A stretch of DNA of 32,000 nt from Dickeya dadantii NCPPB 898 (GTDB lineage Bacteria; Pseudomonadota; Gammaproteobacteria; Enterobacterales; Enterobacteriaceae), in NCBI RefSeq assembly GCF_000406145.1, contig NZ_CM001976.1:1396630-1428629 (forward strand), read 5' to 3'. The notes below the pieces were generated by a model that worked only from the letters and a program-made list of their open reading frames with translations, did not search any database and had not been told where the DNA came from. The position numbers and the translations under genes were made by a program. This document shows, piece after piece, positions 8,583 to 31,234 of this stretch (position 1 is its first letter; every line of letters begins with the position of its first letter).

Positions 8583-9533
8583 CTAGCTGGCGATACGATG
8601 CAACGTATCGGATGAGGCGCTGTGACCCAGATTGTGCCTGATTTGGGTGTTGATGTCGTCGAGCAACTGGTAACGGCGCTGGTACTGGGCCCGTTTTTTG
8701 CTCGGCAATTCATCCAGCGTTTTGCGCGTAATCGTCAGCGGAAGTTGGTACAACCCCGCCGCGTTTCTGTCTGCGTTGACTGACAGCCAGAATTCGCTGT
8801 AACTGGAAAAACGCACCTTATTTTTACGGTAGCAGTAGCGCAGGCTCTGATAAACATGGTTTTCATCGCCCACCGCCAGAATGCGATTGATTCCGGTAAG
8901 ACCGGCGAGGGTCAGCAGGCATTCCAGCAACAGGCGTTTGGGAAACAGCCCGAAGCAGGCTTTCGACGCATCTTTGGTTAGCTCACGGGTCTGGTCGCGG
9001 CCTTTGCCCTGCAAACCACCAATCATGATGGTGGGTTGATTGTGGTCGCGTATCACCGAGAATGTCAGCGACGCCAGCACCACATTGTTAAAGCGGATAC
9101 GCAGCGTGGCCTCGCCCTCTTTGTCGTAACGCGAGGTGCTGCAAATCAGCGAAAAACTTTCGCCGTTCTTGCCGGAAAAACGCGCCAGACAATAGTCATC
9201 CAGGCTGAGAAACGCCTGTTTCAGAAACGGGTTGGCCAACTGATCCACGAAGGTGTAATGGGTACAAATAGCGTCAGCGCGCTCGGCGGCGTGCAGCGTG
9301 GCGGACAGATAAGGGCGGTGAATCTTGGTCGGCAGCATCGGCCGAATTTTCACCGCTTTCTGCATCGCGGGAATCTCAATAATATTATTCAGATAGCGTA
9401 AGGTAATTGACGGCATCAATAATGAACGCAATAAAAACTTGGCTTTTATATCGGCCTTGCGCCAGATCTTTTCAGAGAAAAAATCGCCTTTTAGCAGTTG
9501 ATAAAAAAGCGACAGTGCAGATGTTTTTTCCAT
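8583..9533 (-). CDS. VirK/YbjX (DUF535) family protein
   Basis: Starting at MEKTSALSLFYQLL... gives 316 aa, the typical VirK length. Conserved stretches include KFLLRSLL...HRPYLSA...HY.F. The upstream extension to 9644 has no support. Confidence 0.8.
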   Translation of the reverse strand: MEKTSALSLFYQLLKGDFFSEKIWRKADIKAKFLLRSLLMPSITLRYLNNIIEIPAMQKAVKIRPMLPTKIHRPYLSATLHAAERADAICTHYTFVDQLANPFLKQAFLSLDDYCLARFSGKNGESFSLICSTSRYDKEGEATLRIRFNNVVLASLTFSVIRDHNQPTIMIGGLQGKGRDQTRELTKDASKACFGLFPKRLLLECLLTLAGLTGINRILAVGDENHVYQSLRYCYRKNKVRFSSYSEFWLSVNADRNAAGLYQLPLTITRKTLDELPSKKRAQYQRRYQLLDDINTQIRHNLGHSASSDTLHRIAS

Positions 9534-9860
9534 TTTAATGCCCTGTGAGATAGTGCTGTAAAAATAATCACAGGGGAGCGGATGCCGGTAATGATCTATT
9601 CCCGTAAAACGCCTGCTCGGAAACCCTGCCGCACAGAAAGGCAAGGCGGTTTTTATCTCTGACCTCGCGTTTGCTGTTGCCGGGGATTATAAATATGGCT
9701 AGAAAAAGAAAAATCATAACCCCCATGCTGTTGAGCATTGATTTAGCGAAAATAATAAATACCGGATTATCGCAGGTCTGTTTGGGGTTGATTTAAACTT
9801 AATGGCTGGGAGAGGCGTATAATAAGAGATCGCATGGCTGAAATGCCTCAGTCTCTCAGG

Positions 9861-9894
9861 ACGGTTACCCTATACATACGGTTACCCTATACAT
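9861..9894. repeat. Perfect 17-bp tandem duplication in the virK / bhsA-like intergenic region
   Basis: acggttaccctatacat x2, exact. Confidence 0.95.
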
Positions 9895-10009
9895 ATAGAG
9901 AATTTGCGCCGGCGGTAACCGGTGGACTCCGGCGTCAGTAAACAGGCCGGCAGATGTACCCACCGGCCTGGCCGTTACTTAATCTGATGGTTTTCTTTCC
10001 AGAGAACGC

Positions 10010-10270
10010 TTATTTATAAACAATCGCGCTGGAGCGCACCAGATCGTCGTTATCCATAGAGATAATGACAAAATATTTTCCGCCCAGTTCATCTGCGGCT
10101 TGTGATAATTCGCGGGCCGCGTCCATCGGCGAATCGGTATTACTTGACGTAATCATCCCAATTTTTTGATAGTTATCCGCTTGCTCACGATTTATTTCCT
10201 GCGCCGCCAGCGTGCTGAAAGACGCCAGTGTAATAGCACACGCCGCGATGCTTTTGATTATCATGTTCAT
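10010..10270 (-). CDS. BhsA/McbA/YdgH (DUF1471) family stress-resistance periplasmic protein
   Basis: Starting at MNMIIKSIAACAITLASFSTLAAQ (signal peptide) gives 86 aa ending ...SSAIVYK, as in E. coli BhsA (...TAVIYK). GGAG RBS. Confidence 0.8.
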   Translation of the reverse strand: MNMIIKSIAACAITLASFSTLAAQEINREQADNYQKIGMITSSNTDSPMDAARELSQAADELGGKYFVIISMDNDDLVRSSAIVYK

Positions 10271-10287
10271 TATGCTAACTCCATCTT

Positions 10288-10598
10288 TATACCCGTCATA
10301 CTTCAAGTTGCCGGTGTGTTGGCTTTATTACTCGGCCCATCGATGGGCCTCGCCCCTTCGGGGCCGCTGCCAGCAGCGTTCAAATCGGCTTGCGCCGATT
10401 TGCCGCTCACCCCAGTCACTTACTTATGTAAGCTCCTGGGGATTAAATGAGAGACATCCTGTCTCTCACCGGAGGCCAGCCGTTGGCTGGTCAAATTAAT
10501 TCGTTCCCAACGAATTTGTCACTCGGTTGCCGCGTTACAAGGCTCATTATGAGCCTTGTTCTAAAGGGTCAACGCAACTCGAATTATTTGGGGTAGAG
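10288..10598. repeat. ERIC (enterobacterial repetitive intergenic consensus) element enlarged by internal insertions
   Basis: 10404-10425 is the exact reverse complement of the ERIC2 primer sequence. 10426-10444 matches ERIC1R. The outer arms tatacccgtcatacttcaagttg ... caactcgaattatttggggta match the second copy at 20840-20968. Two extra internal segments carry several hairpins. Confidence 0.8.
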
Positions 10599-10997
10599 TT
10601 AAGGTGTTTATATTTATCTCAACAGAATTACGTGCCGTGGAAAAAGAATGATGACTGTTTCTCTGTTGAGTGTACTCATCATAGGTGGTCGTGAAGGGTA
10701 ATTTTGTCAATTGATGCCATTTTAATTTCAATGCTGTTAATGATGACGAGAAATAATATTTTTTCGTTATGAATTGAAATTTCAATCGATTGATTTTCAT
10801 TAACAAGTTAAATAGCAAGAGTAATCGCTGACGGCATTGTTCCATAATAATGAAAACTGAATTTGAAAACCGTAGCCGATCTTTTTACGTACCCGCCTGA
10901 TTTTTCCGCCAGACGCGTCAGTATCACAGCGTTGTCCCTGTTAAGTGTAATGGTTTAGTAATGCTGTTGTTGCGAATGTGTCTTGTTTTCACTTTTT

Positions 10998-11016
10998 CGT
11001 AATGATAATAATTATT
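10998..11016. promoter_or_regulatory. Fur box upstream of hmuS
   Basis: cgtAATGATAATaATTATt matches 15/19 of GATAATGATAATCATTATC. It lies 72 nt upstream of the hmuS ATG in an AT-rich promoter region. Confidence 0.7.
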
Positions 11017-19460: not shown

Positions 19461-19603
19461 ATAGACCAGAAACATGAACCAGAAACATGGACCAGAAACA
19501 TGAACCAGAAACATGGACCAGAAACATGAACCAGAAACATGAACCAGAAACATGAACCAGAAACATGAACCAGAAACATGAACCAGAAACATAGACCAGA
19601 AAC
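19461..19603. repeat. Perfect-register 13-bp tandem array, 11 units (atRRaccagaaac)
   Basis: Units: atagaccagaaac, atgaaccagaaac, atggaccagaaac, atgaaccagaaac, atggaccagaaac, atgaaccagaaac x5, atagaccagaaac. That is 143 bp with no spacers, 97 bp upstream of the dps ATG and 138 bp downstream of the pip stop. Confidence 0.97.
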
Positions 19604-19740
19604 CGCTGTCCCAGCTCCACCGGGTGGGCTGGCTCACCCTTTATAAAACGATTCTGTGAATAAACGTTTGCGACGTATCAACTTTTTGAAGCCGTGCCCC
19701 CGACCGCCGATGTGCGGCTATCGGGCGGTGCAAGGCGGCA

Positions 19741-20634
19741 TCAGGGCAGACGGCCCAGAAACTCACCGACCACCGCCATGCAGGTGGCGCGTTCTTCCAC
19801 ATGCGGCATGTGGCTGGAGTGCTTAAATATCACCCATTCACTGTTACGGATACGATCGACGAAAGGTTGCACCACCTCGGGAGCCGCTTCGTCGTGCTCG
19901 CCGGATATCAGCAAGGTCGGCACGTCGATGGCAGGCAGGCGATCGATAATACTCCAGTCTTTCATGGAGCCGATGACGTGGAACTCGGTCGGCCCGTTCA
20001 TGGCGTGGTAGACGCTCGGATCGTCGTCCATGGCCGCGAAGGTGCGCTTCACCTCGTCCGGCCAGGGATCAAGCCGGCAAACATGGCGCTGGTAGAACAC
20101 CTGACTGGCGGCGCGGTAGGCGTCGCTGTCCAGCATGCCGGCCTGTTCGTGAGCCAGCAGCGTGGCCTGTACCTCCGGCGGCAGCGCGGCGCGCAGCCGG
20201 GCGGCGGCGGATAGCCACAGCGCCATGGACGCGGGCGAGTTGGCAATCACCAGCCCCTGTAGCCCGGCCGGTTGCCGCACGGCGTGTTCCGCCGCCAGCA
20301 TGCCGCCCCACGATTGCCCCAGTAAGGCGTAGCGCTGCGCGATGCCAAGATGGCGCAGCAGGTTGTCGAGCTCATCCAGAAACAGCGCGACCTGCCAGAA
20401 TTCGGCCGGCTTGTCGCGCAAATGGGTAGAGCGGCCGTTGCCGATCTGGTCGTAATGGATCACCGCCCGGCCGGTTTGGGCGAGGTCGCGAAACGCGTCC
20501 ACGTAGTCGTGGGTGCAACCAGGGCCGCCGTGCGCCACCACCAGCGGCGTGAGCGGCGAGGCGAGATCGCCGCAGACCCGATACCAGGTCTGGTACTCGC
20601 GAAAAGGGGCATACCCCTCACTGACGTTATACAT
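19741..20634 (-). CDS. pip: Proline iminopeptidase-family alpha/beta hydrolase
   Basis: HGGPG oxyanion motif, nucleophile elbow GQSWGG, and a C-terminal His (...[11 protein letters not shown]). 297 aa from MYNVSEGY.... The upstream ATGs at 20652 and 20721 have poorer RBS context. Confidence 0.8.
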
Positions 20635-20839
20635 AACGCATACCTTTTTCATGATGGACAGGCACACGCTACCGCCGGCGCATGGCGGTGAATAGCTAGC
20701 AAAAATACGAGGTTGTGCCATGACGGAAAAAGGCGTCTGAATAACGAGGATTTATCGGGAGGAAATTATCCGTATTTCTCTGTTAATCGGAAAGACATTG
20801 TTTTCCATCAATGTCTTTTATTATTTACCCATTGAGAGT

Positions 20840-20968
20840 TATATACCCTTCATACTTCAAGTTGCAGGTGTGTTGGCTGCGCTCGTTCACCCGAATCACT
20901 TACCTGAGTAAGCTCATCGGGATTCACTCTCTTGCCGCCTTCCTGCAACTCGAATTATTTTGGGTATA
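20840..20968. repeat. ERIC element (canonical ~129 bp form)
   Basis: tatataccc...cttcaagttgcaggtgtgttggc...cacttacctgagtaagctcatcgggattcac...cctgcaactcgaattattttgggtata. An imperfect palindrome homologous to 10288-10598 and to the ERIC primer regions. Confidence 0.8.
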
Positions 20969-21086
20969 GGTTTATATCCATATATTTTTCCATTCTGATA
21001 GATTGTATTATCCATACTGGTTTATTTATCCTGACGTTATCGGTTTTATATTTATTGTAATGATATTAATGGGATTTTAGAAAATC

Positions 21087-21422
21087 ATGCCAAATCCTTT
21101 TACGGCGTCATGGAGCCGCAACGGTAATCTTTTGTGTCACGGTCACTGGATTATTCATTATCTGGACCACGCGTTTGAATTGCCGGAAAAATACCGTGAA
21201 CAGCATTTGGGAACGCTGGGTATTTATTCGGTGATTGATCCGGACGACGAGCTCTATCGGGAAGGGCTGGATGAAGATGACTGGATTCTGGAAAACGTCG
21301 ACTGGCTGGCGGACTGTTTCGAATTGCACCAGGTGCCGATTGAAGAGGGGTATTTCCGCTTTTTCTATCAGGCCGTCAATCCGCACGACTGGCGCTGTAC
21401 CAGCTGCGCCGGGTGTATGTGA
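21087..21422 (+). CDS. Hypothetical acidic 111-aa protein with C-terminal CxxCxxC
   Basis: ORF following an AT-rich region, convergent with the LuxR gene (20-nt gap). Ends ...HDWRCTSCAGCM. No family recognised. Confidence 0.5.
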   Translation: MPNPFTASWSRNGNLLCHGHWIIHYLDHAFELPEKYREQHLGTLGIYSVIDPDDELYREGLDEDDWILENVDWLADCFELHQVPIEEGYFRFFYQAVNPHDWRCTSCAGCM

Positions 21423-21441
21423 CGGTACTGAGAAGGCTGTG

Positions 21442-22206
21442 CTACAGCAGGCGGTAATGCATCGCCCGCACCACCGCCTGCACGCGATTGCTGGCGCCGA
21501 GCTTACGGGCGGCGTTGTTGAGATGCAGGTTGACGGTCGCCAGCGAGCGATGTAGTTTCCGGGCGATCTCCTTGGCGGTCAGCCCTTCCGCCGACCAGGC
21601 CAGACACTCCTGCTCGCGCGGGCTGAGATGCACATGGCGGCAGTGATACCAGGCTTCGTCGAACAACGGGAACACGTGCTCCTGGAAGGTGTGCGCCAGT
21701 AGCCCAATACGCGCCAGCACCGTCTCAATCTCGTTGTCGGTATCAAGCCCGGTGTGGATGGCGGTGACGGTGACGAAGCCGCCTTTGGGCAGGTGCAGCG
21801 GCACCGTGACGCCGCACCGCATATTATGATTCTGCATATAGTGAGATACCGGGCGGTGCTGTTCGTTCAGCACCCGGCGCAGCGAGGTGTTCTCCGGCCG
21901 ACAGTAGGACCAGGTGAACGGCGCGCAGCTGTCGAGGGCGTGGATCTGTACCGGGTCGACCTGGTAGTAACCGCTCTGACACCATAGCGATACCATGTCA
22001 TCCGGCACATTGCGGGTGCGCAGCAGCGAAGGGGTGATCAACTCGCCTTCCAGCGAGCGCGGGACCGGCGTGTAGTCGTAAATCAGCGCGTCAAATCCCA
22101 GTCGCCGCACCTCGTCGTACAACTGTTCGAACGCGGGTTCAAACGCCGCCGCGCCGCGATGGTCGCTGTCATGGGCGGCAAGCCGGGCGGCGGGTTCTCC
22201 GCGCAT
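21442..22206 (-). CDS. LuxR-family solo regulator of the plant-associated-bacteria (PAB) subclass: autoinducer-binding-like domain plus LuxR HTH
   Basis: C-terminal HTH: LSPREQECLAWSAEGLTAKEIARKLHRSLATVNLHLNNAARKLGASNRVQAV. In the ligand domain, ...DDMVSLWCQSGYYQVDPVQIHALDSCAPFTW gives M57, W61, D70, P71 and W85 in TraR numbering. ATG 22206 (AGGAA 9 nt upstream) gives a typical 254 aa. The frame stays open to GTG 22440 through the repeat array (332 aa), so the start is uncertain. Confidence 0.8.
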   Translation of the reverse strand: MRGEPAARLAAHDSDHRGAAAFEPAFEQLYDEVRRLGFDALIYDYTPVPRSLEGELITPSLLRTRNVPDDMVSLWCQSGYYQVDPVQIHALDSCAPFTWSYCRPENTSLRRVLNEQHRPVSHYMQNHNMRCGVTVPLHLPKGGFVTVTAIHTGLDTDNEIETVLARIGLLAHTFQEHVFPLFDEAWYHCRHVHLSPREQECLAWSAEGLTAKEIARKLHRSLATVNLHLNNAARKLGASNRVQAVVRAMHYRLL

Positions 22207-22419
22207 GGCCGCGTTCCTGCTTGCAGAGGTTTTTCCGCTCACGGCTATTCTCCCACCTACGGCTATTTTTTCGCGCATGGCTGTATTTTCGCGCATGGCT
22301 GCATTGCCATGGCTGCATTCCCGCTCATGGCTGCATTCCCGCTCATGGCTGCATTCCCGCTCATGGCTGTATTCCCGCTCACGGCTGTTTTCTCGCTCAC
22401 GGCTGTCCTCCCGGTCACG
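22204..22419 (-). repeat. About 12 degenerate 18-bp tandem units in frame with and upstream of the LuxR core
   Basis: On the - strand: RDREDS-RERENS-REREYS-HERECS x3-HGNAAM (15 bp)-RENTAM-REKIAV-GGRIAV-SGKTSA-SRNAAM. The core unit gagcgggaatgcagccat is repeated exactly 3 times (22322-22375). All six frames are open across it. Confidence 0.9.
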
Positions 22420-22707
22420 GTGCTGATAACGACAAACCACGACGTTTATTGCCTGAATTAATGCAATTTGGGTGCCAGTTGGCCGCGTGCAAAAACTAGC
22501 ATTTTTACTAACTACCCAGCGCGGTGAGTGACCGCTAGCGTAAATGTCAGCGCCGGATTAAGGCGGTGTTAATTGAGGTTTTTATGCGCCAGTGTCACGA
22601 CTATCGCGCTGTTGTTTCCCGTCGGCGTTATCGCGCTGCCCCGGTTTCGGTAACGCCGGCGCCGGGCAGACTGCACTGTTTATGTGCAGCGCCGTGGAGG
22701 AAATAAC

Positions 22708-23646
22708 ATGCACCGTTACCGTTTTTTATTGCTGCGTCCATTGCAGATGCTGCCGGTGCTGTTCGGCATCAGTCTGATCACTTTTCTACTGGTGCGGGCC
22801 ATTCCCGGCGATCCGGCGCGTCTTCTGCTGGGCATTCGCAGCACGCCGGACGCCATCGCCCGCATTCGCGCCCAGTACGGCCTGGATGAGCCTGTCTGGC
22901 TGCAATATTTCTACTTTCTGCGCAATCTGCTGCGCGGCGAAATGGGGCGCTCTATCGTCTACAAGATCGACACCCTGCCGCTGGTGGCGTCCCGGTTGGA
23001 GCCGACGCTGCTGCTGGTACTGGGCAGTGTGCTGATGGCCCTGCTGCTGGCCGTGGTACTGGCGACGCTGGCAGTCCGTCATCACGGCGGGCTGACGGAT
23101 CAAATTATTCGGCTGGTGTCCACCGTCGGGCTGGGGTTTCCCGCGTTCTGGCTGGGGATCATGCTGATTCTGCTGTTCAGCCTGCGGCTGGGCTGGTTTC
23201 CGGTGTCGGGGTATGGCAGCAACTGGGTCGAGCGGCTGCACCACCTGTTCCTGCCGTGCCTGACGGTAGCGCTGGCGCTATCGGCGGTGCTGACCCGCAA
23301 CTTGCGCGTCAGCCTGCTGGCGGAGCTAAAAAGCGATTACGTGGTGGCGGCTCGCGCGCGCGGTCAGCCGGAACGGCGGATTTTCTGGCGACACGTGGTG
23401 CCGAATTCGCTGGTGCCGACGCTCAACCTGCTGGCGGTGAATATCGGCTGGCTGATTGGCGGCACGGTGGTGATCGAAAGCGTGTTTGCATTGCCCGGTA
23501 TGGGGCAACTGTTGGTTCGGGCGATTTTCAGCCGTGATTACATGGTGGTGCAGGGGGTCGTGATGCTGTTTGCCATTGCCACCGTGGCGGTCAATCTGCT
23601 GGCCGACCTGCTGACGGTGGCGCTTGACCCGAGGATTCGCTTATGA
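22708..23646 (+). CDS. Peptide/nickel-type ABC transporter permease (DppB/OppB family)
   Basis: GGAGG RBS before ATG 22708. The N-terminus MHRYRFLLLRPLQMLPVLFGISLITFLLVRAIPGDP is typical of DppB-like permeases. 312 aa. Confidence 0.85.
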   Translation: MHRYRFLLLRPLQMLPVLFGISLITFLLVRAIPGDPARLLLGIRSTPDAIARIRAQYGLDEPVWLQYFYFLRNLLRGEMGRSIVYKIDTLPLVASRLEPTLLLVLGSVLMALLLAVVLATLAVRHHGGLTDQIIRLVSTVGLGFPAFWLGIMLILLFSLRLGWFPVSGYGSNWVERLHHLFLPCLTVALALSAVLTRNLRVSLLAELKSDYVVAARARGQPERRIFWRHVVPNSLVPTLNLLAVNIGWLIGGTVVIESVFALPGMGQLLVRAIFSRDYMVVQGVVMLFAIATVAVNLLADLLTVALDPRIRL

Positions 23647-24497
23647 GCCGGGCTGTGTTCGCCGTCTTCACGCGTCTCACCCCGGCGCGCTGGCGCCCTC
23701 GCCAGCCTGCGCTGTTGGCAGGCATCGCGATTCTGCTGTGCTGGGGGCTGACGGCGCTGCTGGCGCCGTGGGTCGCGCCGTTCGACCCGATAGCGCAAGA
23801 CCCGTCGGTCAGCCTGCAACCGCCGGGCGGCGCCCATCTGTTCGGCACGGATAACTACGGCCGCGACATCCTCTCCCGCGTGATATGGGCCAGCCGCATC
23901 GACCTGCAAATCAGCCTGTTGGGGGTGGTGTTCCCCTTTTGCATCGGCACGCTGTTGGGGGCGCTGTCGGGTTACCTCGGCGGCCTGACCGACACCCTGG
24001 TGATGCGGGTGATCGACGTGGTGCTGGCGTTCCCGTTTCTGGTGTTGATGCTGGCCATCATCGCGGTGCTGGGGCCGGGGCTGCTCAGTTTCTATATCGC
24101 GATGACGATGGTGGGTTGGGTGTCCTACGCCCGGCTGGTGCGCGCGCAGGTGCTGACGCTCAGGCAACGCGACTACATTCTGGCGGCCCGTAGCCTGGGC
24201 TACAGCCACTGGCGGGTGCTGTTCGTCCACCTGTTGCCGAATGCGCTGACCAGTTCGCTGGTGTTTGCGATGTCCGACTGCGTGCTGGTGCTGCTCAGCG
24301 GTGCAGCCATCAGTTATCTCGGGCTGGGGGTACAGCCGCCGCTGGCGGAGTGGGGCGTGATGGTGGCGGAAGGGCAGAGTTTTATTACCACGGCATGGTG
24401 GATGACCACCTTTCCCGGACTGGCGATCGTACTGCTGGCGATGGGCTTTAGCCTGCTGGCGGATGGGCTGGGCGAACGACTGGGAGCGCGACCATGA
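23643..24497 (+). CDS. Peptide/nickel-type ABC transporter permease (DppC/OppC family)
   Basis: ATGA overlap with the previous gene. 284-aa polytopic protein with a ...HLFGTDNYGRDILSRV... motif typical of DppC. Confidence 0.85.
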   Translation: MSRAVFAVFTRLTPARWRPRQPALLAGIAILLCWGLTALLAPWVAPFDPIAQDPSVSLQPPGGAHLFGTDNYGRDILSRVIWASRIDLQISLLGVVFPFCIGTLLGALSGYLGGLTDTLVMRVIDVVLAFPFLVLMLAIIAVLGPGLLSFYIAMTMVGWVSYARLVRAQVLTLRQRDYILAARSLGYSHWRVLFVHLLPNALTSSLVFAMSDCVLVLLSGAAISYLGLGVQPPLAEWGVMVAEGQSFITTAWWMTTFPGLAIVLLAMGFSLLADGLGERLGARP

Positions 24498-25495
24498 CAC
24501 GACTGAATGTAAACGGACTGCTGAAGGTAAACGACTTGACGCTGGAGAACCGCCAGGGTGTCCGGCTGGTGGATGGGGTTTCCTTTTCTTTGCAGAAAGG
24601 CGAAATGCTGGGGCTGGTGGGGGAATCCGGCTCCGGCAAGACCCTGACCTGTCGGGCGCTGATGCGGTTGTTGCCGGGGGCAGGGCTGCGCATCGTCGCT
24701 GGCGAGGTGTGGCTCAACGGCCAGGATGTGATGCAATTGAACGACGCGCAGATGACCAACGTACGTGGACGGCAATTGGGGATGATTTTTCAGAACCCCG
24801 CCAGTCACCTCAATCCGGTGATGACCATTGGCGAGCAGATCGCCGAAAGCCGCCGCCTGCATTTCGGCCGTAGCCATCGCGCGGCACGTGATGAAGCGGT
24901 TGCGCTGTTGCAGCAGGTCGGCATCCCCGACCCGGCACGACGGGCCGGCAATTACCCGCACGAGTTTTCCGGCGGTATGCGCCAGCGGGCGATGATCGCC
25001 GTGGCGCTGGCGTGCGAGCCGCAGATTCTGATCGCCGACGAACCGACCACCGCGCTGGACGTTACGGTGCAGATGCAAATCCTGCGGCTGCTGGCGCAGC
25101 TGCGTGAGCAACTGGGCATCGCCATCATCATGATCACCCACGACTTGGGGGTAGTGGCGCAGACCTGCGACCGCATGGCGGTCATGTACGGCGGCCGCCT
25201 GTGCGAACTGGGTGATAAACGGGCGCTGTTGTCTTCGCCGCGCCATCCTTATACCCGCGCGCTGATTGCGTGCCAGCCGATGCAGGCCGGCGGCAGCGGA
25301 CCGTTGCGCACGTTGCCCGGCCAGCCGCCGCTGCCGGAGCAGTTCGGCGACGGGTGCCGGTTTGAGCCGCGCTGTGCGCGGGCGGGAGACAGCTGCCAGC
25401 GTCAGGCGCCGCCGCTAACCGGGTCGCCTGACGATGCGGCGCGACAACTGGCGTGCCATTACCCGCTGACTGAGCACGAAGGAGACGCCGGATGA
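24494..25495 (+). CDS. ABC transporter ATP-binding protein (DppD/OppD-like)
   Basis: Walker A GESGSGKT, signature FSGGMRQR, Walker [12 protein letters not shown], and a C-terminal oligopeptide-type extension with Cys residues. Confidence 0.9.
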
Positions 25496-26583
25496 ACGGG
25501 ATAAGATACCCGCTGTTGGAAGCGGAAGAGGTTGATGTCACGTTCCCGGTATCGGGTCGCTTTCCCTGGCAGAAACGCGAAGTGCGGGCGGTCAACGGTG
25601 TCAGTTTGCAGATTGCGCCCGGCGAAACCCTCGGGCTGGTGGGCGAGTCCGGCAGCGGTAAAAGCACGCTGGGCCGCGCCTTGCTGCAACTGGAGACGTT
25701 AAAACACGGCCGGGTACGTTTCAACGGCATCCCGGTCAGCGACGGCTTGCATAGCGACGTAGCCCGGCTGCGGCAGGAAACGGCGATGATTTTTCAGGAC
25801 CCGTTCTCCTCCCTCAATCCGCGCCAGACGCTGTTCCAGAGTATCGCCGAGGTGCTAAAAGTCCATAAACGGCTATCGCCCGCGGCCACCGTCGAGCGCG
25901 TCAACCAATTGCTGGCGATGGTGGGGCTGCGGCCGGAGCACGGCCGGCGCTACCCGCATGACCTGAGCGGCGGGCAGTGCCAACGCGCCGGGATTGCCCG
26001 CGCGCTGGCGCTGGAACCGCAACTGGTGGTGGCGGACGAGTGCGTGTCGGCGCTGGATGTGTCGATTCAGGGGCAGATTATCAACCTGCTGATGTCGCTG
26101 CGCGCGCAGATGGGGCTGGCGATGATCTTCATCGCCCACGATCTGGCGGTGGTGCGGCGGCTGTGTGATCGGGTAGCGGTCATGTACCTCGGGCGCATCG
26201 TGGAGGAAGGCCCGACCGAGGCGGTATTCAACCAGCCGCAGCATCCCTACACCGCCGCGCTGATTAGCGCCATTCCCGATATCGACCCTGACCGCCCGCT
26301 GCCGGCGAACGGCCTGATGGGCGAACCGCCCAGCCCGCTGGCGCTGCCGTCCGGCTGCGCGTTTCATCCGCGCTGTGCGCACGCCGTTGCCGCGTGTCGG
26401 CAGCAGTCACCGTCATTACAACAGCAGGAGCACCAGCGAGTCGCCTGCCTGCGCGCCGGAGAGTGGCGGCAGGCAGGCGCGTCGGTGTCCGCGTCCGATG
26501 TTATTGCCGCACCAGGGACTGTTTCACCACCTATAACCATACCCACTTTATCAACAGGGGAGTCGTGCCATGAAAATCTATAA
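25492..26583 (+). CDS. ABC transporter ATP-binding protein (DppF/OppF-like)
   Basis: Walker A GESGSGKST, signature LSGGQCQR, Walker B VVADECVSALD. A tail of about 35 aa overlaps the next gene by 14 nt. Confidence 0.9.
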   Translation: MNGIRYPLLEAEEVDVTFPVSGRFPWQKREVRAVNGVSLQIAPGETLGLVGESGSGKSTLGRALLQLETLKHGRVRFNGIPVSDGLHSDVARLRQETAMIFQDPFSSLNPRQTLFQSIAEVLKVHKRLSPAATVERVNQLLAMVGLRPEHGRRYPHDLSGGQCQRAGIARALALEPQLVVADECVSALDVSIQGQIINLLMSLRAQMGLAMIFIAHDLAVVRRLCDRVAVMYLGRIVEEGPTEAVFNQPQHPYTAALISAIPDIDPDRPLPANGLMGEPPSPLALPSGCAFHPRCAHAVAACRQQSPSLQQQEHQRVACLRAGEWRQAGASVSASDVIAAPGTVSPPITIPTLSTGESCHENL

Positions 26584-28084
26584 ACGCAATGTGGCGGCCG
26601 CCGGCGTGCTGCTGGCGCTCAGCCTGGTCAGCGAGCTGGCGCAGGCGGCCGGGATTCTCACCATCGGACGGCGTGAGGACAGCACCACCTTCGACCCGAT
26701 TAAGTCGGCGCAGAATGCCGATAACTGGGTGTTTTCGAACGTGTTCGACGTGCTGATCCGGGTGGATAAAACCGGCACGAAACTGGAACCGGGGCTGGCG
26801 CAGAGCTGGACGGTGTCGCCGGACGGCAAGGTGTACACCTTCACGCTGCGCGAGGCGCGATTTTCCGACGGCTCGCCGGTGACGGCGCAGGACGCCGTGT
26901 TTAGCCTGACCCGTATCCGCGACAGCAAGGAGTCCTTATGGCGAGACTCTTACAGCATCATCGACAAGCTGGAGGCGCCGGATGCGCATACGCTGGTGGT
27001 GACGCTGAAATCGCCTTCCGCGCCGTTTCTGTCGCAGTTGGCGTTGCCGAACGCCTCGGTGCTGCCGGAGAAAATTGTCCACAGTCTGGGTGAGGAAACC
27101 TTTGCCGAGAAACCTGTCGGCTCCGGGGCGTTTGTCATTACGTCCTGGGCGCGCGGCGACAAGATCGTGCTGGCGAAAAACCCCTATTACTGGCAGGCGG
27201 ACCACGTCAGCCTGGACGGGGTGGAGTGGCAGACGATCCCGGACGACAATACCCGAATGTTGAAAGTGCAGGCCGGCGAGCTGGATGCGGCGCTGTCGGT
27301 GCCGTTCTCGCGTCTCGCATCGCTGCAGAAAGACCCCAACCTCAAGGTGGCGCTGGACCCGTCCACCCGAGAAGACAGCTTGCTGATTAACCATTCTCAT
27401 GGGTTGCTCGGCAAGGTAGCGGTGCGCCAGGCGCTGGATTATGCGATCGATAAAAGCGCCATCGTCAAGACCGTGACGTTTAACTACGGTACCGTCGCCA
27501 ATTCTTACATTCCCAAAGGGGCGCTCTATTACTACGCCGACAACCTGCAACGCCCGTATGACCCGGAAAAAGCCAAACAGATGCTGAAGGCGGCGGGCGC
27601 ATCCGATCTGAAACTGAATTATGTGGTCAACGCCGGGGATGAAGTGGACGAGCAAATCGCCGTGCTGCTGCAACAGCAACTGGCGAAAGCCGGGGTTACC
27701 GTTAATCTGCAAAAGGTCGACCCCAGCCAGAGCTGGAGCATGCTGGTGGCGGGCGATTTTGACGTGTCGGTGAATTACTGGACCAATGACATTCTGGACC
27801 CGGATCAGAAAACCACCTTTGTGCTCGGTCACGACAGCAATATGAACTACATGACCCGCTACCAGAACGACAAGGTCAAGGCGCTGGTTGCCGCCGCGCG
27901 GGTGGAAATGGATCCGAAAAAGCGTGAGCAGATGTACATCGACTTGCAGAAGATGGCCAAAGACGACGCCAACTGGATCGATCTCTACTACAGCCCGTAC
28001 CGTAATGTAACGCGCAAGAACATCAGCGGTTTCTACCAGAACCCGCTGGGGCGTTTCTTCCTCGAAGATACGGTGAAGGGGTAA
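26570..28084 (+). CDS. ABC transporter periplasmic substrate-binding protein, family 5 (peptide/nickel/opine type)
   Basis: 504 aa with signal peptide ...SLVSELAQAAG. Family-5 SBP size and motifs (...DPIKSAQNADNWV..., ...YYSPYRNV...). Last gene of the operon. Confidence 0.85.
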   Translation: MKIYKRNVAAAGVLLALSLVSELAQAAGILTIGRREDSTTFDPIKSAQNADNWVFSNVFDVLIRVDKTGTKLEPGLAQSWTVSPDGKVYTFTLREARFSDGSPVTAQDAVFSLTRIRDSKESLWRDSYSIIDKLEAPDAHTLVVTLKSPSAPFLSQLALPNASVLPEKIVHSLGEETFAEKPVGSGAFVITSWARGDKIVLAKNPYYWQADHVSLDGVEWQTIPDDNTRMLKVQAGELDAALSVPFSRLASLQKDPNLKVALDPSTREDSLLINHSHGLLGKVAVRQALDYAIDKSAIVKTVTFNYGTVANSYIPKGALYYYADNLQRPYDPEKAKQMLKAAGASDLKLNYVVNAGDEVDEQIAVLLQQQLAKAGVTVNLQKVDPSQSWSMLVAGDFDVSVNYWTNDILDPDQKTTFVLGHDSNMNYMTRYQNDKVKALVAAARVEMDPKKREQMYIDLQKMAKDDANWIDLYYSPYRNVTRKNISGFYQNPLGRFFLEDTVKG

Positions 28085-28090
28085 GGTTAA

Positions 28091-28120
28091 CCGCTCCCGT
28101 TAACCGGGAGCGGATCTTTA
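28091..28120 (+). terminator. Intrinsic terminator of the ABC operon
   Basis: ccgctcccg-ttaac-cgggagcgg followed by atctttactt. The 3' half overlaps the first bases of the amn ghost. Confidence 0.7.
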
Positions 28121-29175
28121 CTTACCGGAACAGCGGTTCGTTGAAGGTACGCAGCCTCCGCGAATGCAGGTAGTAAGGCTTCGCCGCGCAGCAGCTACAC
28201 CCTGAAGAAAGCCGATCCGCAAATGCTCGCAAATCACACCTGCATAGAAGCAGAGAGCCTGACCGAGCAGTTTGATCTCACCGTGCAACGGCTAATACGA
28301 CACGCACAACAAGGTGCCGTAAAGCACCCGCGAAGAAATACCCCTGCGCCCCCGATCAGGGAGCTACATCAAAGTCTACCGCCACCGCAAGGCGGAGGTT
28401 GAAGCGCAGCGCCGAAGACGGAATAGCGCAATTCCCAGTTGCGATCGTAGGTGGCAACAACAGTGCCGATGCGCAGGCAATGTCACAATTCCTCGCCCGG
28501 CATGACAAAAAACTGATCAGTAGCATCGATACAAGGCAAGATGTACTTAGAAAATGCTAGGGATCAGCAAAATAAGGCGGCAACAACCAATCCAGCACGT
28601 GATCGTAACGCAGGTAAGCGTGCGCCAGTTACGTAATCGCAAATGGTATGACTTTCCAGCAAGGACGCCGAACTCGCCGATCATCAACCAGGCATGCAGC
28701 AGCAGGACCACCAGATGGTCGAAGATGATGTTTTGGCGTTGGACGGTCACAACGCCGATGATCACCAGCGTAATGCCGCGCCCTTCGCGCGAGATGAGAT
28801 GCTAAGCCGGCATCTGATGATTTTTCCACTGCACAGAACCGATAAAGCCTGCTGCGGATTCGCCGTATCGGCGGTAATCAGCGCGCCGACAACACAGGCT
28901 AACAACCCTGATACGCCCTGGCAGGATCGGTAATTTGATCGCAAGCCCAGCGCACGAAGTAATCGACATACCGCATAAAGTTGGTGAACAGCACGAACGG
29001 CTGGAAGTGCCCGACTCAAATGACGAAGTACTAGCGCAGGCGCGCAACCGATAAAATCGGTACAAAGCGCACTCGAAGTGCGACAGGGGGAAATGCTCGA
29101 GAAACTGCAACAGACCATCAAAATGTTTAGTCGCCAATCAACACAAAAGATGGGGTCGGGAAATCCAGCGCCACC
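28107..29175 (-). pseudogene. Degenerate, 5'-truncated, frame-broken copy of the 3' ~1 kb of amn (the amn ghost)
   Basis: Collinear with amn 29561-30595 in the same orientation. Perfect blocks include 28763-28801 = 30201-30239 and 28918-28958 = 30351-30391. Interspersed blocks are rewritten and carry indels. Only short fragmentary ORFs remain, with patchy similarity to Amn (e.g. ...DHLVVLLLHAWLMIG...). Weaker similarity may continue to about 29300. Confidence 0.85.
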
Positions 29176-29573: not shown

Positions 29574-31031
29574 TTACCGGAACGGCGGTTCGTTGAAGGT
29601 GCGCAGTTTGCGCGAATGCAGGTGTTCGGCTTCGGCGCGCAGCAGGTCCACCGTGCGGATGCCGATCTGCAAATGCTCGGAAATCGCGCCTTCATAGAAG
29701 CGGTTGGCCTGACCGGGCAGTTTGATCTCACCGTGCAACGGCTTATCCGACACGCACAACAGGGTGCCGTAAGGCACCCGGAAGCGATACCCCTGCGCCG
29801 CGATGGTGGCGCTTTCCATGTCTACCGCCACCGCCCGGCTGAGGTTGAAGCGCAGCGCCGAAGCGGAATAGCGCAATTCCCAGTTGCGGTCGTCGGTGGT
29901 GACCACGGTGCCGGTGCGCAGGCGCTGTTTCACTTCCTCGCCCGGCATGCCGCTCACCTGCTTGGTGGCGTCGTACAGGGCGCGCTGTACTTCGGCGATG
30001 CTGGGGATCGGGATATCCGGCGGCAACACCGAATCCAGCACGTGGTCGTCGCGCAGGTAAGCGTGCGCCAGTACGTAATCGCCGATGGTTTGACTTTCCC
30101 GCAGGCCGCCGCAGTGGCCGATCATCAACCAGGCGTGCGGCCGCAGTACCGCCAGATGGTCGCAGATGGTTTTGGCGTTGGACGGCCCGACGCCGATGTT
30201 CACCAGCGTAATGCCGCGCCCTTCGCGCGAGATGAGATGGTAGGCCGGCATCTGATGGTTTTTCCACGCCAGATCCGATACCGCCTGCTGCGGGTTCTCC
30301 GTATCGGCGGTAATCAGCGCGCCGCCGGCACAGGCTAACGCCTGGTACGGGCTGGCAGGATCGGTAATTTGATCGCAAGCCCAGCGCACGAATTCATCGA
30401 CATACCGGGTGTAGTTGGTGAACAGCACGAACGGCTGGAAGTGCTCGGCTCGGGTGCCGGTGTAGTGGCGCAGGCGCGCCAGCGAAAAATCGGTACGTAG
30501 CGCATCGAAGTGCGACAGGGGGGAATGGTCGAGGGTCTGCAACAGACCGTCGGCAGTTTCGTCGCCGATCAACGCCAGCGATGGGGTCGGGAAATGCTGC
30601 GCCAAAGCAACGCTCATTGAGCGATCCAGCTTCAAATTGGCACCGTCGATCACATAGGGATAAGGGATTTCCTTGTCCGACAGCGCGACTTCGATAGTGG
30701 CCGAATAATCGTTTTCCAGGATCGCCAACTGTTCCGCCAGATAGTGCCGGAACAGCTGCGGCCGGGTGACGGTGGTGCGGTAGTTGCCGCCGTGGGTCAG
30801 GCGGCCGTACGCGCGGGTTTTGCTGTGCTTTTGGGACTGCCCGTCCCAACTGATGCGCAGTTCCGGGTAGACAAATAGCCCGTTGGCGCGCTCGGCGGCA
30901 TCCGGCAGGGTGCCGTGGGTAATAAAATCGCCGATTGCGGTGCGTAACGCTTTGACTGCGCGATCATACAGCGCTTCCAACTGGTCCAGCGCCTCGCTGG
31001 CGGACAGGCCTGCGCCAGGTGCATAACTCAT
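29574..31031 (-). CDS. amn: AMP nucleosidase
   Basis: 485 aa from ATG 31031 (AAGGAG RBS). Collinear with E. coli Amn over its whole length (...FVYPELRISWDG..., ...IPYPYVIDG..., ...FVLFTNYTRYVDEFVRW..., ...LVNIGVGPSNAKTICDHLAVLRP..., ending ...RKLRTFNEPPFR). Confidence 0.95.
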   Translation of the reverse strand: MSYAPGAGLSASEALDQLEALYDRAVKALRTAIGDFITHGTLPDAAERANGLFVYPELRISWDGQSQKHSKTRAYGRLTHGGNYRTTVTRPQLFRHYLAEQLAILENDYSATIEVALSDKEIPYPYVIDGANLKLDRSMSVALAQHFPTPSLALIGDETADGLLQTLDHSPLSHFDALRTDFSLARLRHYTGTRAEHFQPFVLFTNYTRYVDEFVRWACDQITDPASPYQALACAGGALITADTENPQQAVSDLAWKNHQMPAYHLISREGRGITLVNIGVGPSNAKTICDHLAVLRPHAWLMIGHCGGLRESQTIGDYVLAHAYLRDDHVLDSVLPPDIPIPSIAEVQRALYDATKQVSGMPGEEVKQRLRTGTVVTTDDRNWELRYSASALRFNLSRAVAVDMESATIAAQGYRFRVPYGTLLCVSDKPLHGEIKLPGQANRFYEGAISEHLQIGIRTVDLLRAEAEHLHSRKLRTFNEPPFR

Positions 31032-31234
31032 CTTCACTCCTTTTTTCCGATGCGATGGCCGACGCCATACAGTGCGCCCATTGTGGCACAGCACACATCA
31101 CGGCACGATGGGATAAAAGTGAATTTGAAAAGTCAGGGGGCGGTACCTTCATAGAAAACTAATTTGTGATTTATATCTCAAATTTAAGGGGTCGTTTCGC
31201 TCGCTTTTTAAACCAATAAAGAACAAATGCAAAA

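Follow-up and report, generated by a model that had tools for sequence, protein, structure and literature searches.

Does the LuxR-family gene at 21442-22206 of the analysed stretch of Dickeya dadantii NCPPB 898 DNA (contig NZ_CM001976.1, positions 1,396,630 to 1,428,629; 32,000 nt, hereafter the window) encode a receptor for a plant compound, and do its neighbors belong to the same circuit? The preliminary description, made from the sequence alone, recognized a proline iminopeptidase gene (pip) at 19741-20634, a LuxR solo at 21442-22206, and genes for an ATP-binding cassette (ABC) importer at 22708-28084. It read them as a solo locus of the plant-associated-bacteria (PAB) type. The coordinates and domains of this gene set are borne out. 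The residues of the ligand pocket, the orthology of the substrate-binding protein AapF, the gene order and the putative regulator boxes all agree with that reading. With a probability of roughly 85%, the locus is considered to be the Pip system of D. dadantii and to work as a circuit that senses an imported signal.

The Pip system of D. dadantii is already known, and the window represents a correct recognition of it rather than a new system. A luxR-solo system consisting of pipA, pipR and an ABC peptide transporter has been described in D. solani, D. dadantii, D. dianthicola, and D. fangzhongdai (PMC8860905). Table 1 of the same 2022 review names D. dadantii DSM 18020 and 3937 as carriers of the homologue. 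A survey from 2023 includes Dickeya among the genera with plant-associated solos. The enterobacterial context that had been pointed out for the locus is real, but it is not unusual, as there are studies of the Pip system for D. zeae MS2 and Kosakonia, and it is tabulated for D. dadantii (PMC8860905). The present comparison makes modest additions: two boxes per locus, defined across 80 genomes; the division of the locus around orf111, a resident gene assigned to the PF27390 family; and a variable repeat in the pipR leader. As far as could be found, these three features have no earlier description.

The comparison set consists of 80 loci encoding relatives of the regulator, which were found in reference genomes by a scan with the PipR alignment. 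They come from Enterobacterales, Pseudomonas, Rhizobiales, and Rhodoferax, and no Dickeya is among them. The window proteins were mapped onto the 80 fetched loci to obtain gene order and identities. The Dickeya comparison loci were obtained separately, by exact-protein look-ups. One of them, CP023467.1, which we take to be the accession of D. dadantii DSM 18020, also encodes the binding protein of the window. Across 11,558 aligned nt, the window and CP023467.1 show zero substitutions and a single 14-nt indel.

The peptide originally quoted for the regulator, ...DDMVSLWCQSGYYQVDPVQIHALDSCAPFTW, is found in the minus-strand open reading frame (ORF) ending at 21442. The product has the Pfam domains Autoind_bind (PF03472, 8.9e-23) in its N-terminal part and GerE (PF00196, 3.5e-17) in its C-terminal part. 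Its 254-aa form is identical to a protein (P0166) named "LuxR family transcriptional regulator [Dickeya dadantii]" at NCBI. AGGAA is located 8 nt upstream of the ATG at 22206.

Three alignments, by HMMER against LasR and by MAFFT and BLASTP against TraR, agree on Met57, Trp61, and Trp85, the residues that had been counted from the invariant DP. In the comparison with LasR, W60 corresponds to Met and Y64 to Trp, while D73, P74, and W88 are conserved. The numbering of the TraR sequence used here reproduces the canonical positions. TraR W57 and Y61 correspond to M71 and W75 of PipR. TraR D70/P71 (D84/P85 in PipR), W85 (W99), and G113 (G132) are kept in both MAFFT and BLASTP, and the helix-turn-helix residues E178, L182, and G188 are retained. 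A failure of the Met and Trp to align with TraR 57 and 61 had been named as a possible refutation; the ligand-binding domains do align there.

Three further pocket residues, Q87, V120, and M124, represent V73Q, F101V, and A105M. Together with W57M and Y61W, these are the marks of the plant-associated subfamily, which has Leu or Met at position 105 (PMC7301841). The ten-residue pocket pattern VMWDPQWVMG is identical in 49 of the 80 loci, almost all of them from Enterobacterales. Position 57 is Trp in the Pseudomonas members of the set and Met in the Rhizobiales members. The pair M57/W61 had been presented as the mark of these solos. The window regulator fits this, but PipR of Pseudomonas GM79 was wrongly listed as an example, because it has Trp at both positions (PMC7301841).

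It is very improbable that the regulator is instead an orphan responding to N-acyl-homoserine lactones (AHLs), like SdiA or QscR, and senses the AHLs of ExpI or of neighboring bacteria. The Autoind_bind domain and the nearest solved structures, which are all AHL receptors (RhlR with 1.4e-13, LasR, and SdiA), could be taken in that sense, and Dickeya makes AHLs through ExpI, whose gene sits elsewhere in the genome (PMC8860905). However, two of six conserved AHL-pocket residues are replaced by W57M and Y61W, besides the changes at positions 73, 101, and 105. The identity of PipR is about 20-25% to AHL receptors and 48-72% to pip-linked solos. The strict synteny with pip and the aap transporter also stands against an AHL receptor, and the characterized relatives do not respond to AHLs (PMC4981722). 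A domain scan of the major ORFs of the window and the annotation of the syntenic D. solani region reveal no autoinducer synthase domain (Autoind_synth), consistent with the earlier statement that no luxI-type gene lies in the window.

The importer is the second part of the circuit. The proposed divergent five-gene ABC system is confirmed as two permeases, two ATP-binding subunits, and a family-5 binding protein. AapF matches the solved AapF of Pseudomonas GM79 (PDB 7KZ8/7KZ9) with an E-value of 1e-227 and 68.7% identity over 479 ungapped residues, whereas the next best PDB match has 3e-51. By this sequence comparison, the window transporter is assigned as the ortholog of GM79 AapBCDEF. Its genes occur in the order aapF-E-D-C-B, divergent from pipR, in 76 of the 80 loci, with the box and pipA following pipR. 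The position of the binding-protein gene at the end of the operon had been regarded as a deviation; this does not hold, as the same order in GM79 and in those 76 loci makes it the norm of the family. In some loci, aapA, an extra pip paralogue, heads the transporter operon. Neither an aapA peptidase gene nor a remnant of it is seen between box 2 and aapB. As aapA is present in 31 of the 80 loci and absent from 49, it is an optional feature.

In GM79, the transporter encoded by aapB-F is required for the activation of pipA by PipR in response to leaf macerate, and two peptidases damp the response (PMC4981722). The earlier remark that PipR needs an adjacent ABC transporter for its signal response is therefore correct for GM79.

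The third part is the peptidase gene and the boxes. PipA has the nucleophile motif GQSWGG and is without a signal peptide. In 79 of the 80 loci, a pip gene follows pipR, and the window pip shows 64-81% identity to it. The association of pip with the solo, as first described, holds in these loci. The spacing between pipR and pip is about 90-140 bp in these 79 loci, compared with 807 bp and an intervening gene in the window. The start of PipA, MYN..., aligns with the starts of its homologues, ATGTAC or ATGTAT. A longer pip ORF with a start at 20721 was considered and rejected: the starts of the homologues give it no support. Because this longer ORF would cross box 1, the start is fixed at 20634.

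Downstream of pipR, a 20-bp palindrome is conserved across the loci, for example AACTAGCATTTTTGCTAGTG. Its center is 66-81 nt upstream of the pipA start in 79 of the 80 loci. A weight matrix was built from these pipA-side boxes only. With this matrix, a second box is found in the region between pipR and aapA or aapB in 74 of the 80 loci, and only three matches are found elsewhere in about 1.5 Mb. The window contains one box of each kind. These two are its sole matches above 12 bits; the next best match has 11.2 bits, and the maximum in 50 shuffles was 17.9 bits. In GM79, the box is centered at -71.5, mutation of its CT abolished activation, and a second candidate site is at -91.5 of aapA (PMC4981722). 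The published geometry of the PipR box recurs in the window, where the predicted box is centered 69.5 nt upstream of pipA. A scan of 20600-22760 for the sigma-70 consensus gave nothing useful for pipA, pipR, or aapB; one match inside orf111 is at chance level.

The pip box proposed for Kosakonia is CCCTGAAAGCCAGTTCACTT, at -19 to -39 (PMC7301841). In the six Kosakonia loci of the set (L029, L035, L036, and L040-L042), the palindrome AACTAGCATTTTTGCTAGTG is seen about 70-74 nt upstream of pip, matching the validated GM79 site, and CCCTGAAAGCCAGTTCACTT overlaps an apparent -10 region. The comparison of the 80 loci points to AACTAGCATTTTTGCTAGTG rather than CCCTGAAAGCCAGTTCACTT as the likely pip box of Kosakonia.

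An importer, a peptidase, and an activator with boxes at both promoters are also the architecture of a catabolic regulon. The locus could thus be a substrate-induced operon for the uptake and catabolism of a peptide-like or amino-alcohol nutrient, with PipR as an ordinary substrate-responsive activator and PipA as the first catabolic enzyme, instead of members of an inter-kingdom signalling circuit. The GM79 system is induced by peptone and the tripeptide Ser-His-Ser, and its peptidases appear to consume the inducer (PMC4981722). The same locus is present in Klebsiella from human faeces (PMC8860905; loci L007, L008, L013, and L049). On the other hand, HEHEAA acts on PipR of GM79 at very low concentrations (according to PMC7301841), which is more like a signal than a nutrient. 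The parts of the circuit are identical either way, and what differs is the interpretation, not the mechanism. A nutrient operon is considered rather unlikely, and the reading as a sensing circuit for an imported signal is kept here.

The Pip genes of the window are not contiguous. The preliminary description noted an enterobacterial repetitive intergenic consensus (ERIC) element and an unknown convergent ORF between pip and the regulator. Both the ERIC element and the intervening gene are there, but the gene is not an unknown insert. It is orf111, a resident gene assigned to the PF27390 family. A precomputed PF27390 match exists on the exact orf111 gene in CP023467.1 and on all 43 of 43 homologues. 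No relative of orf111 was found in PDB, and no match in NCBIfam or in a copy of Pfam without the PF27390 model. None of the 80 Pip loci from other genera contains the gene. Where Dickeya genomes have no Pip genes at this site, the PF27390 gene sits between dps and amn.

DNA comparison places pip and box 1 (about 19681-20783) on one side of orf111 and the genes from pipR to aapF (about 21421-28087) on the other side, while the flanks of orf111 itself are conserved. D. solani and D. dianthicola have the same split arrangement, and in the sequences compared the split is confined to one Dickeya clade. In a genome of the D. zeae clade (GCA_017897305.1; loci L084 and L091), a compact canonical Pip locus is found at another site, and the dps-amn interval contains PF27390 but is free of Pip genes. 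Its pipR-pipA spacing is 85 bp, and its PipR is 67% identical to that of the window. Dickeya therefore appears, from these sequences, to hold two separate Pip lineages.

The ERIC element is a strain-variable insert. Elements of this kind are imperfect palindromes of about 127 bp that occur in several intergenic copies per enterobacterial genome. The stretch 20835-20975 has matches in all 5,426 complete Escherichia coli genomes; the identity is about 85%, and the median is 11 copies per genome, which are unannotated. Neither D. solani (L081) nor a Dickeya locus without Pip genes (L088) has the element at this position.

With a resident gene between them, pipR and pipA cannot be co-transcribed here, and pipA needs its own promoter with a box. 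The regulatory link is expected to survive the split because box 1 stayed with pipA. The presence of Pip genes on two flanks of a resident gene may reflect an unusual two-sided acquisition or rearrangement. Directly after aapF, at 28088-29173, there is a diverged partial copy of the 3' part (about 1.06 kb) of amn, the AMP nucleosidase gene. It shows 84% identity to the resident amn (29574-31094), 79% to amn of D. solani, and 75% to amn of the D. zeae clade. CP023467.1 is without this copy and has instead a different filler of 0.77 kb with a 245-bp copy of the 3' end of amn. The partial copy may be a recombination scar left when the Pip genes were acquired. A terminator-like hairpin with an 11-bp stem and a T-rich tail is seen at 20790-20819 on the plus strand; it is located in the ancestral spacer, some 270 bp upstream of orf111, with no plus-strand gene before it.

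The leader of pipR contains an array of an 18-nt repeat, and the number of copies is not the same in all strains. In register, the repeat unit is approximately GGAAnnCAGCC-ATG-AGCG, that is, a site similar to a ribosome-binding site followed by a start codon. The first unit has a strong, conserved GGAGG (22407-22411), six further nucleotides, and GTG (22398-22400). From this GGAGG to the ATG at 22206, the window has 211 nt; nine other Dickeya loci have 89, 107, 143, 179, or 197 nt to the equivalent ATG. Among the nine loci, the distances are multiples of 18 nt apart, and PipR is in the frame of the upstream start. The annotated lengths of Dickeya PipR are 254, 266, 278, 284, 290, 296, and 314 aa. 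Outside this Dickeya clade, the PipR family is 250-254 aa long.

The window differs from the nine loci by a 14-nt partial unit. It puts the upstream GTG out of the PipR frame and results in an upstream ORF of 45 codons (22263-22400) with TAG at 22263-22265. The 14-nt piece could be either a real variant or an assembly error. The regulator had been described as having a repeat-encoded N-terminal extension. The repeat is present, but the extension is uncertain in the window, as the 14-nt piece breaks the frame and the long ORF is off-frame. This ORF, of 332 aa and reaching back to a GTG at 22440, was rejected as evidence for an extension: at least four frames are open across the repeat, and the ORF reads it as HERECS..., while every relative uses the frame MSGNAA.... 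The 254-aa form from the ATG at 22206 matches the length typical of the family, and NCBI annotates 254 aa in most D. dadantii.

It can be speculated that the repeat is a tandem multiplication of the pipR initiation module that gives PipR an N-terminal hexapeptide-repeat tail of variable length and, separately, that the locus was acquired or rearranged from two sides. This proposal is improbable. If translation starts upstream, the array might serve the receptor of a plant signal as a tuner of the contingency type, or as a switch between on and low. We know of no such repeat-tuned device reported for LuxR-family regulators.

These features could also be signs of decay. The split, the loss of aapA, and the off-frame repeat would then uncouple or silence PipR in this strain, and pipA would be independent of PipR. 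The 14-nt piece is unique among the ten Dickeya loci, the upstream frame ends at TAG, and pipR and pipA are separated by the ERIC element and a convergent gene. In D. zeae MS2, moreover, virulence needs pipA but not pipR (as summarized in PMC8860905). Nevertheless, none of the seven genes is disrupted, and the two boxes are kept at high scores. The 254-aa product has its own AGGAA site, is the commonest form at NCBI in D. dadantii, and has the typical length of the family. The loss of aapA is common, and the 14-nt difference may be an assembly error. Decay in this strain is considered improbable, and a working Pip circuit is assumed in what follows.

In the periplasm, AapF would capture a small plant-derived amine or peptide-like compound, and AapBCDE would import it, as suggested by orthology. 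The compound would then bind the PipR pocket with M57, W61, Q73, V101, and M105, a signature that is seen in the sequence. Liganded PipR would bind box 1 and activate pipA; the site is predicted by conservation, and the corresponding mutation in GM79 abolished activation. Box 2 probably couples the expression of the transporter, of pipR, or of both to the signal. PipA is a putative cytoplasmic proline iminopeptidase and may degrade the signal; a negative feedback of this kind has been proposed for GM79. Induction of the GM79 system by leaf macerate depends on PipR, on the box, and on AapB, and mutants in the peptidases show an excessive response (PMC4981722). In D. zeae MS2, PipR controls pipA, and pipA is needed for virulence on banana (Feng et al. 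2019, as summarized in PMC8860905).

HEHEAA is a possible ligand of the window system on indirect grounds, but the odds are against it. The ligand may differ from that of GM79 because PipR of Pseudomonas has W57/W61 and the window regulator has M57/W61.

Several observations weigh against the proposed circuit. PsrR of Kosakonia has the same pocket and the same type of locus, but under the conditions used it gave no response to rice macerate, ethanolamine, or HEHEAA (PMC7301841). A close homologue of AapF from another species was reported not to bind HEHEAA (PMC10134790). These two results also bear on the identity of the ligand. The virulence of D. zeae MS2, as summarized in PMC8860905, is affected by the deletion of pipA and unaffected by that of pipR. 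The 807-bp gap between pipR and pipA, together with the frame-breaking piece in the leader, could lower or alter the expression of the regulator in this strain. The function of the circuit in D. dadantii is deduced by analogy with its relatives.

LuxR solos that respond to plants give bacteria a way of sensing their hosts that is widespread but still little understood. To our knowledge, HEHEAA for PipR of GM79 is the sole known ligand among them. D. dadantii is a genetically tractable soft-rot pathogen, and its copy could help to find the ligand of the M57/W61 subgroup.

Table 1. Features of the Pip locus and its surroundings in the window.
Feature	Coordinates	Strand	Basis and remarks
pipA, proline iminopeptidase-family hydrolase, 297 aa	19741-20634	minus	TIGR01250 2.6e-78, above cut-off
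Predicted PipR box 1, ACCTCGTATTTTTGCTAGCT, lux-type 20-bp palindrome	20694-20713	minus	Weight matrix 23.2 bits; center 69.5 nt upstream of pipA ATG
ERIC element, strain-variable insert, no functional part of the Pip system	20844-20961		Repeat matches in E. coli
orf111, assigned to the PF27390 (PM0253) family	21087-21422	plus	Resident gene of the dps-amn interval, not a Pip component
pipR, plant-associated-type LuxR solo, 254 aa from ATG at 22206	21442-22206	minus	Autoind_bind and GerE; pocket signature
18-nt repeat array	22207-22420	minus	Tandem Repeats Finder: 22261-22420, period 18
Interval with a 14-nt partial repeat unit, exact placement ambiguous	22294-22319	minus	Sole difference from CP023467.1 in 11,558 aligned nt; absent in nine comparison loci
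Predicted PipR box 2, AACTAGCATTTTTACTAACT, divergent pipR/aapB region	22494-22513	plus	Weight matrix 24.5 bits; 204 nt upstream of aapB ATG
aapB, ABC permease	22708-23646	plus	BPD_transp_1 6.3e-40; 67-82% identity to the syntenic gene in 76 loci
aapC, ABC permease	23643-24497	plus	BPD_transp_1 and OppC_N; synteny
aapD, ATP-binding subunit	24494-25495	plus	ABC_tran and oligo_HPY; synteny
aapE, ATP-binding subunit	25492-26583	plus	ABC_tran and oligo_HPY; synteny
aapF, periplasmic family-5 substrate-binding protein, signal peptide	26570-28084	plus	SBP_bac_5 5.8e-103

Some other elements are seen in and near the window. A 13-bp tandem repeat, ACCAGAAACATGA, occupies 19465-19603 between dps and pip, with 10.7 copies and 95% matches. 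It lies about 100-240 bp upstream of the dps start, and the length of this spacer varies in other Dickeya. Rfam detects no RNA family within the Pip locus. Outside the locus, at 10319-10408 on the minus strand, it gives a match to AaHKsRNA22 (Aggregatibacter sRNA 22) with 42.2 bits against a gathering score of 39.8. This match is located between a DUF535 gene and hemS, in a patch of low GC content (44-48% at about 9000-11000). Past the end of the window, in CP023467.1 (15622-16974 of locus L083), a reverse transcriptase gene of the group II intron type (RVT_1 and GIIM) is found between hcp and vgrG, two genes of the adjacent type VI secretion cluster. It is not there in D. solani.

Four known systems can be compared with the window. 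The OryR and XccR loci of Xanthomonas share M57/W61, have pip as a neighbor with a lux-type box upstream of it, and respond to plant extract and not to AHLs. Unlike the window, they have no linked ABC importer; a gene for an APC-family transporter is located upstream instead (according to PMC4981722). PsrR of Kosakonia KO348 is an enterobacterial M57/W61 solo accompanied by pip and the same ABC genes (Mosquito 2020, PMC7301841). The regulators of the Kosakonia loci show 64-67% identity to PipR of the window and share its ten-residue pocket signature without change. The Kosakonia locus differs in being compact, with 84 bp between psrR and pip, and in the pip box proposed for it (PMC7301841).

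Pseudomonas GM79 resembles the window in the divergent aap operon with the binding-protein gene last and in the position of pipA downstream of pipR (Schaefer 2016, PMC4981722). In both, one box precedes pipA by about 70 nt and another is located on the aap side, and their AapF proteins are close, as described above. The window differs in being without aapA. The PipR homologues of Pseudomonas are about 48-54% identical to that of the window, and they have W57/W61 in place of M57/W61.

The PipR/PipA system of D. zeae MS2 is from the same genus and likewise comprises pipR, pipA, and a five-gene peptide-type ABC importer (Feng et al. 2019, as summarized in PMC8860905). The D. zeae type, represented by L084, is compact and occupies another chromosomal site, whereas the window type is split by the PF27390 gene and the ERIC element and has the 18-nt repeat. 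The homologue of the MS2 system in D. dadantii DSM 18020 and 3937 has about 72% nucleotide identity to it with 90% coverage (PMC8860905, Table 1).

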